From a virus (Duplodnaviria > Caudoviricetes), in the IMG/VR virus record IMGVR_UViG_3300048762_000252, positions 102,603 through 166,602 of that record: DNA of 64,000 nucleotides; one strand, 5' to 3'. A program made the translations under genes and the position numbers. A model generated the notes under the pieces. That model did no database searches, was not told the origin of the DNA, and was given only the letters and a program-made list of their open reading frames with translations. Below are positions 100 to 4,529 of the stretch, one piece after another; the stretch's first letter is position 1, and each line of letters opens with the position of its first letter.

Positions 100-127
100 T
101 TGACAAATCCTAAAATCGTGAGATCAT
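100..127 (+). promoter_or_regulatory. sigma70-type promoter for the tRNA-like RNA and mom gene
   Basis: TTGACA at 100-105, 16-nt spacer, extended -10 TGnGATCAT at 119-127; predicted start near 134, the first base of the tRNA-like element. Confidence 0.6.
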
Positions 128-133
128 AAAAAA

Positions 134-207
134 GCGTGGATAGCACAAAGGTAGTGTGTTCGATCCCAATCGAAAGGTGGCGGTTCGACTCCGACCTCCA
201 CGCTCCA
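134..207 (+). tRNA. non-canonical tRNA-Gly-like RNA
   Basis: Acceptor GCGTGGA/TCCACGC, discriminator T and encoded CCA; D arm GCAC-AAAGGTA-GTGT; anticodon stem TTCGA/TCGAA with 6-nt loop TCCCAA; T loop TTCGACT with irregular T stem. Confidence 0.85.
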
Positions 208-211
208 AACA

Positions 212-1006
212 ATGGAAAAAGCACATCAACGAAAAATTAGAGAAGAGCAAGCACGCTACGATTCTCCGCTGGCAGAATGGCATGACATTGACACGTCTAT
301 TCAAAACGGTATCGTTCATGAAATAGATTTCGATGTCGCAAAACCTATTATTCTCAAATACGAATGGCTTGGAAAATTGCGTGCCGGAATGCTACATGCT
401 TTTGGCATATTTTTTGATGGTGTCATCGGCGGCGTTGTGATCTATGCCAATGACTACTCCGAAAATCTTGGTACCTGGGATGGCTACGGATACACGGGTA
501 AGATTATTTGCTTGGCAAGAGGCACTTGTGTTCATTGGGCGCATGAACATACCGGCAGCAAGCTCATCAGACAGTCAATGAAGATGCTGCCCGACAAATA
601 TAAAATAATTTCTTGCACCGTAGACGAAAATGCAGGAGAGATCGGTACGATTTATCAAGCATGTGGTTTCAACTACGTTGGAATCATGGGACCAGGAAAA
701 CGTGTCGTTTTTATAAAACCAAATGGTAACCAAATCTCTGAACGGACGGCTCGTGACCTATATGGCACAGGCAACATCAAACTGCTGGAAGAGAAGGGAC
801 TGAAAGCAGAATATGTGAAACGCAAGGCTCGTTACTTCGCATTCCGTGGGTCCAAGAAAGAACAGAAGGAACTACGCAAAGCTATCGAGTCTCAAATAAA
901 ACCATATCCTAAACGGCAGCGGCATTCTGACGACGAGTTGCAGCAGCTTTGTGACCAGCCTGAACCATCGTCTCATGACGCTCCTGCTTCGCACGAAGAC
1001 GAGTAG
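212..1006 (+). CDS. mom: Mom-family (GNAT-fold) DNA adenine modification enzyme
   Basis: IISCTVDENAGEIGTIYQACGFNYVG matches the Mom motif (S-x-x-D...G-x-x-GTIYQA-x-x-F/W-x-Y-x-G); upstream LARG..SKLI and C-terminal KARY motifs. Confidence 0.8.
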   Translation: MEKAHQRKIREEQARYDSPLAEWHDIDTSIQNGIVHEIDFDVAKPIILKYEWLGKLRAGMLHAFGIFFDGVIGGVVIYANDYSENLGTWDGYGYTGKIICLARGTCVHWAHEHTGSKLIRQSMKMLPDKYKIISCTVDENAGEIGTIYQACGFNYVGIMGPGKRVVFIKPNGNQISERTARDLYGTGNIKLLEEKGLKAEYVKRKARYFAFRGSKKEQKELRKAIESQIKPYPKRQRHSDDELQQLCDQPEPSSHDAPASHEDE

Positions 1007-1148
1007 CAGCGGCTTTGAAACCAGCACGGACCTGAGTGGTGTTTTTGCCTTCCGCAGCGGCGTGCGCTACGATGGCATTGATCTTCTTGGTGACAGCGGA
1101 CTTGAGTCCCGGTGTCGTTGCGTTTATGAGTTGTTCTGCGATTGTCAT
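909..1148 (-). CDS. small basic Ala/Lys-rich protein with AGxKAAATR repeats
   Basis: ATGA coupling to the upstream gene, AGGAAGG RBS; paralogous to the C-terminus of 1145..2137. Confidence 0.7.
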   Translation of the reverse strand: MTIAEQLINATTPGLKSAVTKKINAIVAHAAAEGKNTTQVRAGFKAAATRLRAKQERHETMVQAGHKAAATRRQNAAAV

Positions 1149-2137
1149 TGTGTTATACCTTCCTGTTGGTGAATTCGTGTAGCAGCCGCTTTAAATCCTG
1201 CAATCACCATTGTGGGATTCTTCCCATATGCGGCAGCAATTGCAGCTTCGTGGTTCATCTTCCGCCACACAGCCGATCTTTGAGCGGACGTGGTGGCAAA
1301 AGCAAGTTGACGAGAGATTGTGTTATAGTGTGTCATTTCGTGCGTGCTAATAACTTTTTCTATCGGTTCTGCGTTGAGCACATCTTGAATGACGGTACGA
1401 ACTGCATTCAGATTTCTGTCTTCTAGGCGATGTCCTGAGCGTACAATATTGGTACATCCCCATACCAACATCGGAGATCCATCGTTGTACGGTTCCAATT
1501 TGTACGTAGCATCATAACCATCCAACAGATGAAGACGGATAAGTAAATACATCATACATGCCGCATTGCGGTAAGCTTCTGTCGATAGGTTTCGGAATTC
1601 TCTCCGTTTCATGGTATCGAAAAATTCTCCAGTGCTGGTCTGCATGGCTTCCAGGAGACTTGGGTAGAATGGATTACCACGAAACGCCGGGGAACCTGTG
1701 ATGAACACATTGGCATGAGGTTTAAGAGCCGGTAATAGAAACTTCGTGAACCATTGTACATCCACTCGCCGCATATTGCCTTGATAGTCCAAGTTGGCAA
1801 GGTCAAGAGAGCCGGAATTTAGCGGCACAGTCACCAGATCCCCAAAATAGGGTTCGACGGCAACGGAAAGTTCGGATAGCACTTTGCTCATTGCCAAGAA
1901 AGTATCAGCTTCACGTTCCACTGCAATCACACTGGAGTGGCTGTCAATTGTGTTCTGTTCAATAGCGTATTTGACATCTTCGCATTGAGCACTTGGTAGT
2001 GTCAACACTCTATCGAAGTGACGCTTACTTTTCCAGATAAGCGGTCTGACGATAGACGCCTTAGATGTTCGATTTGCCCAATTGATTGTTGCCATGTTAT
2101 TGCACCAGCCCGTTGTATAGTGGCATCGGTTTTTCAA
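1145..2137 (-). CDS. hypothetical protein, possible class I SAM-dependent methyltransferase fold
   Basis: Rossmann-like pattern VLTLPS...VIAVERE...LDLANLDYQG; start possibly at 2095. Confidence 0.45.
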   Translation of the reverse strand: MKNRCHYTTGWCNNMATINWANRTSKASIVRPLIWKSKRHFDRVLTLPSAQCEDVKYAIEQNTIDSHSSVIAVEREADTFLAMSKVLSELSVAVEPYFGDLVTVPLNSGSLDLANLDYQGNMRRVDVQWFTKFLLPALKPHANVFITGSPAFRGNPFYPSLLEAMQTSTGEFFDTMKRREFRNLSTEAYRNAACMMYLLIRLHLLDGYDATYKLEPYNDGSPMLVWGCTNIVRSGHRLEDRNLNAVRTVIQDVLNAEPIEKVISTHEMTHYNTISRQLAFATTSAQRSAVWRKMNHEAAIAAAYGKNPTMVIAGFKAAATRIHQQEGITQ

Positions 2138-4529
2138 TTACCATCGGAATCAGCGTAGAGCGTTTGTTTTTTTCGGTTGGGTTGAATTCTAAGTGAGTTT
2201 CTAGTTCTCGTTGTTCTCTCATGTAGTCAATTTTGGCGAGAGGAAGAGCGGTACCAACAACTCTAATATTAGAATAGTTAAACCACTCTTGCGCTTCCAA
2301 TTCAGCCTTTGTGAGCTTGTTCTTTTTGCCTTTGCCGTTACCGAATAACTGGGAGCGAAGGACGCCACAAGTGATTCCTACTTCACCTTTAGGAGAGTAC
2401 TTACCATCTGCCTGACTGATAGTGTACAATTGGTCGGCGTTGCGCCCACCAAAATTCTTGTACTTCATATTGTCACTTAGATGCCAGATGAGAGAATTTT
2501 TGGTTTCCCCATTGTTCTTAGCTTTTCCAGCAGGATCATGAATCCCGTGAAATGTTGCCTTTGTACCATGACGAAAAGACCAATCTTTCCCGGCAAAGCG
2601 ATGTTCACCAGCCCGGTTTTTACTTTCCACTTCTTGTCCAATGCTTGCAATTGATAGACCAGTTACGTCAGCCACATGTTTCCGCATTATAGCATCAAGC
2701 ACGGAGTTTGAGAAATAATTCGCCGTATCTTCTACATTACCGATAACATTTTTGTCACTTTGTAATCTAGCCGTGAGCGAAGAGAACAAAAACGTTACCA
2801 TCGGGTCGTGTGTCCATTCTTCATTCCACAGAAGGCAGTTGCTATGATTGGAATAGAGCGACTTACCATTTTCCAAAACCCATGCCAGACGACGAGCCGG
2901 ACAACGATCTTCTTCGTAGCACACACCTTTATCTTGAATAGTCTTGTGAATTTCGTAAGATCTGTTCGTCAACAACAGCCGAGTGCGTGCAGTCTTGTAT
3001 CCACTCAGGCGTGCGGCGAAGCTCTGTTTGACTGACTCATCACCTTTATTTGCCGGAGCAAGATCAATGGCGATGTCAATCAACTTGTGATACCGATGAG
3101 CCATTTTGCAGCGGTCTACAATAATGGTAATGACCTTCATACCTTTCATGTAGTAATAATCTTGAATGTCTCTGATAGACCTAAACTTTTTATGCTGCGC
3201 CACAACCTTGGGATCTCCAAGATTTATAACAGCAATTTCTGGATTGTTGTTTATAACAGCAGAAAGTTCTTGACAAGCCCGCATTTCTTCTTTGGGTTGT
3301 TTCCGGTCCACACGAATCATAATAATGTCGTTGTCAACCATCATCCGCTTAATAACACGCTTCAACAACAGTAGATGCTTGCGTCCATAAGGACCATCTT
3401 CTTCGGCATCGTTACCGGTTTCTACCTGATTACGATAGTATTCCGGCTCTAAGGTTTCTTTTGGACCAAGACCATACTTTGCACGGCACTCTTCGTCCAC
3501 GATACAGAGCGGAAGCCGATGATGTGTTTTTAACGCACCGGGCATGAAACGATAAATTACTCTTCCTTCTGACAAACATTCGCCCGTCTTTTTGTTGATA
3601 TCTCCTATGAAAAATGATTGATAACCGGGATCAATCCATCCCGCTATGTGATGGATAAGTCCATAAACTTTGGGTTGCAAGAACTCTGTAGGTGTGGCGT
3701 CTACGGCAACGAGTGTATGCTCTACATTTAAATCACGAATCTTGTTCTGAAGCTTGGACCAGATGCCGTTTTCTGCGCTGCCATAATGTGGTTCATCCAA
3801 TGCAGCGAATACGCTATAATCTGCCCCAACGCACAATTTTTTTATCAGTGCGTCAAATGCTCCAAGCACTATCGTGTTCGTATCTTTGACCATTCTGTCC
3901 GCAGCAAATTGGTGCGTTCTTTGAACAACTCGATCAAATTGATTTGGAGATCCAATGTGAAGTTTGTTGCGGTAGTAGTCAATGACTTTGTATTTTTTGC
4001 GCTGATAAACCACGGAGAGACATGACATCAAGGCCGCACGAAGCCGAATCTCATCGAACATGGTTTTTTCGTGCTTCTCAAGATTTGGAATGATGGCGAT
4101 TGGATAAACTGTCTTTTTCTTCCCATTATTCAACCACTCCAACATTGGGTAAATGGTTAGAAGAATTTGTTGAATAGCGCTTTTTGTGCTCTGTGTGGGC
4201 GACGTAATAAGATGCAATGGCTTCTCTTTGTAATCGTCGTATTTATCCGCAAGAAGACACTTCATAGCGTCACTGAGGGTACGAGTGCCACCAGGATACG
4301 GAACGCCATGGTTATCATCAATATCATATCCACCACAAAGAACATCATCTTCGCATTCCGGGAGGACCCCCGAAAACTCCAGTTTAAAGCCTGGAAGAAT
4401 CAACTGTTTACAAAACCTTTTGAGAGCCTTCGTCACTGCACGAATTCTGTAGCGACGAATTTGCCTAGAAAGCTGCGAAAGGGTGAGCGCCGATGCGCTC
4501 AGTTCGTAATTGTTTGAATCGTCCATCAC
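2097..4529 (-). CDS. divergent SF2 helicase/ATPase-like protein
   Basis: SPTQSTKS (TQSGKT-like Walker A), LDEPHYG (DExH), VDATP (motif III); own sigma70 promoter at 4534-4563. Confidence 0.55.
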   Translation of the reverse strand: MMDDSNNYELSASALTLSQLSRQIRRYRIRAVTKALKRFCKQLILPGFKLEFSGVLPECEDDVLCGGYDIDDNHGVPYPGGTRTLSDAMKCLLADKYDDYKEKPLHLITSPTQSTKSAIQQILLTIYPMLEWLNNGKKKTVYPIAIIPNLEKHEKTMFDEIRLRAALMSCLSVVYQRKKYKVIDYYRNKLHIGSPNQFDRVVQRTHQFAADRMVKDTNTIVLGAFDALIKKLCVGADYSVFAALDEPHYGSAENGIWSKLQNKIRDLNVEHTLVAVDATPTEFLQPKVYGLIHHIAGWIDPGYQSFFIGDINKKTGECLSEGRVIYRFMPGALKTHHRLPLCIVDEECRAKYGLGPKETLEPEYYRNQVETGNDAEEDGPYGRKHLLLLKRVIKRMMVDNDIIMIRVDRKQPKEEMRACQELSAVINNNPEIAVINLGDPKVVAQHKKFRSIRDIQDYYYMKGMKVITIIVDRCKMAHRYHKLIDIAIDLAPANKGDESVKQSFAARLSGYKTARTRLLLTNRSYEIHKTIQDKGVCYEEDRCPARRLAWVLENGKSLYSNHSNCLLWNEEWTHDPMVTFLFSSLTARLQSDKNVIGNVEDTANYFSNSVLDAIMRKHVADVTGLSIASIGQEVESKNRAGEHRFAGKDWSFRHGTKATFHGIHDPAGKAKNNGETKNSLIWHLSDNMKYKNFGGRNADQLYTISQADGKYSPKGEVGITCGVLRSQLFGNGKGKKNKLTKAELEAQEWFNYSNIRVVGTALPLAKIDYMREQRELETHLEFNPTEKNKRSTLIPMVIEKPMPLYNGLVQ

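Follow-up and report, generated by a model that had tools for sequence, protein, structure and literature searches.

The terminal 64 kb of a 166.6-kb viral contig from IMG/VR (IMGVR_UViG_3300048762_000252, Caudoviricetes; completeness estimate 79%, CheckV), referred to here as the window, begins with a 74-nt tRNA-Gly-like RNA (positions 134 to 207, (+) strand) followed directly by a gene for a 264-residue protein of the Mom family (mom, 212 to 1006, (+)). We consider the RNA to be probably, though by no means certainly, a dedicated, non-translating glycyl donor for Mom. An initial annotation of the same DNA had proposed a private tRNA-Gly donor of this kind. The comparative sequence evidence that strongly supports this proposal is the recurrence of the RNA at 21 Mom loci, the covariation of its stems, and the fixation of the nucleotides that glycyl-tRNA synthetase (GlyRS) reads in molecules whose anticodon loops are mostly abnormal; the donor role itself stands as a probable reading of these patterns.

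The chemistry that such a donor would serve, a disguise for phage DNA, is known from bacteriophage Mu, whose Mom protein transfers glycine from Gly-tRNAGly to N6 of deoxyadenosine (Silva et al, Nat Commun 2026, PMC13219725), as the initial annotation had stated. Mu Mom accepts all three E. coli tRNAGly isoacceptors and refuses mischarged Gly-tRNAAla, and the authors inferred that the enzyme recognises tRNA-Gly close to its 3′ acceptor end (PMC13219725). In their study the tRNA figures as a resource scavenged from the host, and phage-encoded tRNAs are not mentioned. The identity set of bacterial tRNA-Gly comprises U73, the pairs G1-C72, C2-G71 and G3-C70, and C35 and C36, and the GNAT toxin TacT reads U73 together with G71 (PMC9976931). 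Non-proteogenic tRNAGly is stated to be known from staphylococci only, where it binds EF-Tu weakly by way of T-stem pairs 49-65, 50-64 and 51-63, has UGC where the T loop otherwise reads UUC, and is favoured by FmhB (PMC7826273); the role of these pairs in EF-Tu affinity and the existence of the staphylococcal molecules had both been invoked in the initial annotation. The co-location of a tRNA-Gly-like sequence with mom is itself already published: in the ssrA islands of Dehalococcoides, the gene for a Mom homologue of ~270 residues has among its first 150 bp a conserved 76-bp cloverleaf resembling tRNA-Gly, a 'pseudo-tRNA' for which McMurdie et al (BMC Genomics 2011) proposed no function because the co-substrate of Mom was then unknown (PMC3146451).

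The tRNA-Gly-like RNA upstream of mom

The RNA scores 34.6 bits (E 8e-5) against Rfam RF00005, which places the cloverleaf above the family's gathering threshold of 29, and it is also detected by ARAGORN and by our own covariance models (80.7 and 85.7 bits). Its 7-bp acceptor stem pairs GCGUGGA (134-140) with UCCACGC (197-203) and is followed by U73 (204) and an encoded CCA (205-207). Between the acceptor strands lie a D arm (143-157), an anticodon stem UUCGA/UCGAA (159-163/170-174) enclosing the 6-nt loop UCCCAA (164-169), a variable region (175-178), and a T stem GGCGG/CCGACC (179-183/191-196) that carries a canonical T loop, UUCGACU (184-190). Folded alone with RNAfold, nucleotides 134-207 adopt the cloverleaf, with the anticodon loop closed further to a CCCA tetraloop; for 134-260 folded as a single RNA the minimum-energy structure is not a cloverleaf, and this fold was not used for our conclusions.

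All of U73, G1-C72, C2-G71 and G3-C70 are present, and the anticodon loop contains CC followed by A, where C35 and C36 can be assigned by analogy only, the loop not being of 7 nt. The RNA departs from a canonical elongator tRNA, with its 7-nt anticodon loop, U33, 3-nt anticodon and regular 5-bp T stem, at two sites. ARAGORN labels it 'tRNA-???' with a 2-nt anticodon (cc), and therefore a 6-nt loop, in agreement with a single deletion at the loop in the Rfam alignment. The 3′ strand of the T stem, CCGACC, has one surplus base, which appears in the Rfam alignment as one insertion and in RNAfold as a bulged A at 194 beside five base pairs. The initial annotation had described the 74-nt cloverleaf ending in CCA 4 nt before an ATG that lacks a Shine-Dalgarno sequence, the GlyRS identity set and the 6-nt loop, all of which hold; its irregular T stem holds as well, although the G50·A64 mismatch plus extra C by which it explained the irregularity is one option beside the simpler bulged A194. 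No viral contig matched an exact pattern of the window's anticodon arm, and blastn against GenBank phages gave no match.

ARAGORN finds no other tRNA-like gene in the window. The phage has seven further tRNAs at 55.6-60.6 kb of the genome, none for glycine, and because all seven receive ordinary 3-nt anticodon calls, the abnormal features are particular to the RNA at 134-207; all seven also encode CCA, so the encoded CCA is no distinguishing mark. These tRNAs bear on a different explanation, in which the RNA is an unusual phage tRNA-Gly for translation, for instance to supplement GGN decoding or to resist host anticodon nucleases, that lies near mom by chance and on which Mom may draw as on other tRNA-Gly. 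Phages commonly carry tRNAs and this one has its own set, but the RNA lies ~45 kb from that cluster and on the opposite strand, and together with the family features described below this makes a translational role very improbable.

A sigma-70-like promoter (100-127, (+); TTGACA at 100-105, a 16-nt spacer, TG at 119-120 and GATCAT at 122-127; 10/12 matches) ends 7 nt before G134. As a consensus match only, it predicts a transcription start at ~134, which is G1, as the initial annotation had placed it. Four nucleotides, AACA (208-211), separate the CCA from the ATG of mom at 212, before which we found no Shine-Dalgarno sequence, and a TAG at 152-154 shuts the mom frame inside the RNA, so that mom begins past the CCA. 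A second sigma-70-like site, TTGACA-16-TATCGT with 10/12 matches, is located within the 5′ part of the mom open reading frame (ORF; 288-315, (+)).

The assignment of the downstream gene to the Mom family, made earlier by inspection, was confirmed by profile searches. PF25680 matches the ORF with 68.8 bits (cut-off 27.1; E 6.7e-19) over profile positions 3-202 of 202, and PHROG 1384, 'Mom-like', matches with E 1e-25. The conserved core spans residues 34-235 (nt 311-916) and ends in KPYPKR, and residues 236-264 form a non-conserved tail. In an alignment to the Mu Mom of NC_000929, Mu residues R111, S124, D149 and Y159 correspond to R103, S116, D138 and Y148, while R151, which is essential in Mu, aligns to N140 and is not kept in the clade of the window Mom. 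The profile search reaches PDB 8bv8, 'Methylcarbamoylase mom', whereas phmmer with the single window protein gave no match in the PDB. A large protein database holds 1679 homologues at E<=1e-10, the nearest being P0001 (88%) and P0002 (68%), and tblastn against GenBank phages returned five weak Mom matches, none of them close.

Relatives of the RNA beside Mom genes

The RNA belongs to a family of 21 distinct members, found in phage contigs and bacterial metagenome-assembled genomes (MAGs). Each member shares its strand with a Mom-family ORF that it abuts or in which it is nested, at a distance of ~0-100 nt. Twelve are upstream of mom and nine at its 3′ end. In one relative, L017, whose Mom is 61% identical to that of the window, the acceptor stem and the irregular T arm match those of the window RNA, compensatory substitutions have altered the D stem and three pairs of the anticodon stem, and the loop has only 5 nt, CCCAA. 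The RNA also accompanies Mom proteins beyond the reach of tblastn (the L099 type), which pass the Pfam Mom threshold with 45 bits. The link to mom does not depend on having searched from Mom: DNA patterns derived from the RNA alone recovered nine distinct true cloverleaves, from viral contigs and one Planctomycetaceae MAG, and all nine are directly beside a same-strand Mom-family ORF (L098/L099, L124/L128, L126, L127/L131, L129, L130, L132/L133, L150 and L181). Other pattern matches were discarded. Those to the 3′ half in the genome collection (22 and 16 loci) and 19 of the 20 viral matches to a GGCAGUU pattern were chance matches in coding sequence with no cloverleaf, L125 was rejected as an ordinary tRNA, and the doubtful match L047 was left out.

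Two covariance models were built, R1 from five sequences and R2 from 14. R1 and R2 find copies abutting mom that ARAGORN misses (L048, L066, L081, L085, L094/L096, L021 and L025); across 457 kb of Mom loci each model match abuts mom or falls in one tRNA cluster, at L053, and four viral records scanned over their full length contain a single strong copy each. Among 63 clusters of Mom loci, which were found by Mom similarity and had their Mom domains clustered at 90% identity, nine bear the element, corresponding to ~14% of distinct loci. Of 15 Mom loci collected independently from bacterial MAGs, three (L159, L163 and L166) contain it. For the 15 nearest IMG/VR homologues of the window Mom (43-49% identity), neither ARAGORN nor a permissive Rfam scan detected a tRNA, and mom directly follows another ORF; this absence reflects a patchy distribution and is not a refutation. 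In a quick Mom tree the element-bearing clusters are scattered, requiring at least five changes, and one deep clade of short Moms is wholly tRNA-linked. The clade of the window Mom in this tree contains the window, L017 and two methyltransferase-Mom fusions, L018 and L019.

Covariation was measured for 15 members in a covariance-model alignment, MAFFT having been set aside because it misplaced the anticodon arms. Standard pairs occupy 98.1% of cells, compared with 74.6% in shuffles, and none of 500 shuffles reached the observed value. Double-sided changes occur at 16 of 21 pairs, and the covariation score is 0.707, compared with 0.03-0.13 when the partners are slid by 1-3 columns. The compensation is visible by eye in the anticodon stems, which include UUCGA/UCGAA, CCUGA/UCAGG, CCCGU/ACGGG, UCCUC/GAGGA, CCCCU/AGGGG and GAUCU/AGAUC. 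Judging by these substitutions, the molecule is under selection as an RNA. The view that it is a decaying pseudo-tRNA or an integration scar without present function would suit the label 'pseudo-tRNA' that annotation pipelines gave to the Dehalococcoides counterpart, as well as the decay of the element to an in-frame linker between methyltransferase domain and Mom in L018 and L019. It is nearly refuted by the covariation, which is strong in each of the four helices even though the Mom proteins of these loci can barely be aligned, and a full-length cloverleaf is kept in 21 lineages and forms by itself from the window sequence; we give this view almost no credence.

What the family keeps is confined to few positions. 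Twenty of the 21 members have G1-C72, C2-G71, G3-C70 and U73, every member has CC in its anticodon loop, and 16 encode CCA. Variation is free in acceptor pairs 4-7 and in the stems of the D, anticodon and T arms. By our own parsing the anticodon loops include UCCCAA, CCCAA, (U)AUUCCA(G/A), (U)GUUCCA(G/A), CACCC, UUCCC, CAAUCCAG and CUACCCAG, with lengths of 4-6 and up to 8 nt, and some members have a 7-nt loop with G, A or C at position 33. A bulged-A T stem is common to 14 of the 21 members, and a second subfamily has regular T stems with T loops of the GGCAGUU or UGCGAAU type. The positions that GlyRS, and a GNAT enzyme such as TacT, read are fixed, and the parts that EF-Tu binding and decoding require are degraded in several ways.

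These features return to the idea of a tRNA for translation. In about three of the 21 members the anticodon loop is standard (7 nt, U33, purine 37), as that idea would predict, and these members deviate elsewhere, by a reduced D arm, a non-canonical T loop or a G7·A66 mismatch. At L053 (120-3684) mom (2501-3268) is flanked on both sides by the genes of a 16-tRNA cluster; downstream of it come a tRNA-Asp and, 85 nt from mom, a canonical tRNA-Gly(UCC) at 3353-3425. The idea is contradicted by the aberrant loop lengths, by the replacement of U33 with G, A or C in several members, and by T stems that are bulged or T loops without U54-U55-C56. It is also contradicted by the Mom-independent members, which are all joined to a Mom gene and in many cases nested in its ORF, unlike translational tRNAs. 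We regard L053 as a different way of holding a tRNA-Gly near mom.

The RNA and mom are arranged in three ways. In layout A (the window and L066), a promoter positioned for a start at G1 is followed by the RNA and then by mom with its own ATG; in L066 the geometry is that of the window, with TTGAAA-17-(TG)TAAGAT, 6 nt, and then G1. In layout B, seen in eight of the ten upstream members examined (L017, L099, L124, L126, L127, L132, L150 and L048), a start codon lies ~4-10 nt before G1 and the frame is open across the RNA into mom. The elements are 73 or 76 nt long in these loci, which keeps the reading frame; several (L124, L132 and L150) have a good Shine-Dalgarno sequence, and L017 and L150 have no alternative usable mom start. 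In layout C (L081, L094, L085, L021, L025 and L130), the RNA begins on, or overlaps with, the final codon of the conserved Mom core (…KPYPKR), and the mom frame continues into the RNA. The near-leaderless mom mRNA that the initial annotation had expected from 3′ processing of the RNA fits only the window and L066 and fails as a general mechanism, most relatives being nested or abutting mom at its 3′ end. At L017 (1160-1190) the in-frame ATG ahead of the tRNA-like sequence has a perfect T4-type late-promoter box, TATAAATA, 5 nt upstream of it, which suggests late, possibly leaderless expression in that phage.

Several of these arrangements would also suit a cis-acting tRNA mimic that controls a toxic gene and is not an aminoacyl donor, for instance as a site for RNase P or RNase Z, a stability element, a block to ribosomes at the mom start or a site of autorepression by Mom. 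Translation of Mu mom is tightly controlled via Com and an mRNA hairpin (Mu record annotation). With the in-frame start codon of layout B lying just before G1, a folded cloverleaf would occupy the initiation region. The 73- or 76-nt element keeps the frame, in downstream members the mom frame enters the RNA, and in the window the ATG follows 4 nt past the CCA without a Shine-Dalgarno sequence. However, a 5′ operator cannot account for the nine members at the 3′ end of mom. The variable position of the element argues against a pure 5′ operator and, together with the co-transcription that is kept throughout, is a better fit to a trans-acting product. Nor does a processing or stability signal need U73, C2-G71, G3-C70 or the CC-A of the loop, which are nevertheless fixed while the rest drifts with compensation. 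We regard control in cis as the sole function as unlikely, about one chance in a handful, and note that it is compatible with the donor model as an extra layer of control and need not be an alternative to it.

Reading through the RNA also leaves traces in protein sequences. In eight public Mom homologues (P0003, P0004, P0011, P0014, P0016, P0023, P0057 and P0067) the 25-40 N-terminal residues are the translated tRNA-like gene, and the motif …CVDSxxV…GGSxPTSTLQ… is its in-frame translation. Such extensions may be real in layout-B loci and are elsewhere a systematic annotation artefact. In the fusions L018 (~1150-1210) and L019 (1-40), a methyltransferase (PF01555) is joined to Mom by linkers, …PVPPEDASIP-VSHQR and …PPQDGGSTP-VSHQR, that resemble a decayed in-frame remnant of the T arm, of which L019 retains GGCGGCTCGACTCC; in these fusions a former tRNA gene seems to have become the linker of a protein. 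An N6/N4 DNA methyltransferase of the same family (PF01555) lies directly upstream of the tRNA-mom unit in several loci, among them L099 (5931-6170, (-)) and L018, and Mom and the methyltransferase may form a small DNA-modification island.

A putative glycyl donor for Mom

The donor reading would treat the 74-nt RNA as a specialised descendant of bacterial tRNA-Gly that is expressed together with Mom. Transcription from the promoter at 100-127 would probably start at or near G1, and release of the 3′ end would expose a CCA that is already encoded. The host GlyRS could then charge the RNA with glycine, a step that we propose because the full bacterial identity set is kept. The constricted anticodon loop and the irregular T stem, which would lie at the surface that EF-Tu contacts, may bar the charged RNA from translation, by analogy with the staphylococcal non-proteogenic tRNA-Gly. 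Mom would finally take the glycyl group for N6-adenine hypermodification of the phage DNA, as expected from the chemistry of Mu Mom. With a private donor of this kind, Mom would not deplete the Gly-tRNA needed for translation, EF-Tu would not sequester the donor, and the modification system could be carried from one host to another.

Several observations weigh against this reading. The element is present in only nine of 63 Mom clusters (~14%), three of the 15 MAG loci and none of the 15 nearest IMG/VR homologues, and Mom therefore clearly works without it, as in Mu. Bacterial GlyRS reads C35 and C36, which it may not be able to do in a loop of 4-6 nt. One member, L163, is without G1-C72 and U73 as aligned. 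Binding by Mom alone, or a need of RNase P, could also account for the constancy of U73 and of acceptor pairs 1-3. Excision of the RNA would in most relatives decapitate the mom mRNA or remove its stop codon, which is awkward for a simple co-production of enzyme and RNA. Finally, the alignment used to measure covariation was fitted to the structure and the model, and its members share ancestry.

In the donor reading, in-frame nesting implies that processing and translation of one transcript would compete, and in the nested and abutting relatives a transcript would probably yield either the enzyme or the RNA, a choice that, more speculatively, may restrain toxic Mom expression. In an extended form of this reading, the RNA would be a dedicated non-translating glycyl-tRNA of phages and mobile islands whose sole client is a DNA-hypermodifying enzyme and whose gene is usually nested in the client's ORF or fused to its last codon, so that each transcript becomes Mom or its co-substrate. 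We hold this extended form only tentatively and think it would sooner prove wrong than right. If true, it would describe a self-contained, self-limiting and host-portable module, with the first viral tRNA that has a purely non-ribosomal role.

Genomic surroundings and related systems

On the other side of mom, a convergent 79-residue ORF (909-1148, (-)) shares 98 nt with the 3′ end of the mom ORF, where the non-conserved tail is encoded, and is given here as context outside the system. A search for a terminator-like site or hairpin between the convergent units found none. Behind the 79-residue ORF, in a region that includes 1145-2137 (-), the ORFs of 330 and 810 residues are without a confident Pfam match. 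The gene directly upstream of the tRNA-mom unit stops just short of the first window base (L001, 865-1401; genome 102066-102602, (+)), and its 178-residue product matches RelA/SpoT below threshold (22.9 bits, cut-off 27; E 1e-4). Certain small alarmone-synthetase-like toxins act on tRNA 3′ ends, and the adjacency of this gene and the tRNA-mom unit may be coincidence. In the phage's tRNA cluster, outside the window, ARAGORN reports a 92-nt tRNA-Ile(tat) (genome C1, 60502-60593, (-)), a length unusual for tRNA-Ile, with an unmodified UAU anticodon, which is rare.

tRNA genes are elsewhere co-transcribed with protein genes, as in the E. coli thrU-tyrU-glyT-thrT-tufB operon and the tRNA region of phage T4. 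There too tRNA and mRNA come from one transcript that is split by RNase P and 3′ processing, but those tRNAs are canonical and translational, un-nested, and without any tie of donor and client to the adjacent protein. Mu Mom (PDB 8bv8) shares with the window protein the family PF25680 and the residues R111, S124, D149 and Y159, and the co-substrate of this founding member is Gly-tRNAGly. Mu differs in having no tRNA gene of its own, scavenging host tRNA-Gly instead, in controlling mom via Com, and in having R151 where the window has N140.

The molecules NP1-NP3 of S. aureus and S. epidermidis, which serve FmhB, FemA and FemB, are likewise extra tRNA-Gly species, charged normally by GlyRS and bound poorly by EF-Tu and the ribosome, and the logic by which a transferase outside translation prefers a special tRNA-Gly is the one proposed here for the Mom-linked RNA. 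They are, in contrast, cellular, limited to staphylococci, devoted to cell-wall synthesis and equipped with 7-nt UCC anticodon loops, whereas the Mom-linked RNAs are viral or mobile and physically joined to the gene of their client, with anticodon loops that are non-standard in most cases and a bulge in the T stem. The window RNA is not of the NP1-NP3 lineage, and the resemblance is one of functional analogy only.

The Dehalococcoides pseudo-tRNA, compared by its description, matches the layout of L017, L099, L124, L126, L127, L132, L150 and L048 and differs from the window, where the RNA is outside the ORF and the mom ATG follows the CCA; it was seen in one bacterial genus and one fosmid (PMC3146451). 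The donor reading, if true, would explain this 'pseudo-tRNA', which has puzzled annotators since 2011. The family has practical consequences for annotation, in that tRNA finders call these genes 'tRNA-???' or 'Trp', or miss them, and gene callers read through the RNA and create false Mom N-terminal extensions (…CVDS…GGSxPTSTLQ…) in public databases. An RNA gene in frame within the ORF of its client enzyme is in itself an unusual gene architecture. For the tRNA-dependent Mom reaction described in 2026, the RNA would provide a natural and probably optimised co-substrate, and the family would help to account for the recognition of tRNA-Gly by Mom, as nothing but the acceptor end, U73 and the CC of the loop is constant. 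If the reading is correct, the Mom-linked RNA would be the second independent case of a dedicated non-translational aminoacyl-tRNA after that of the staphylococcal cell wall (PMC7826273), here in viruses and for DNA chemistry, and diverting a tRNA from the ribosome would be a recurrent answer to competition from EF-Tu.

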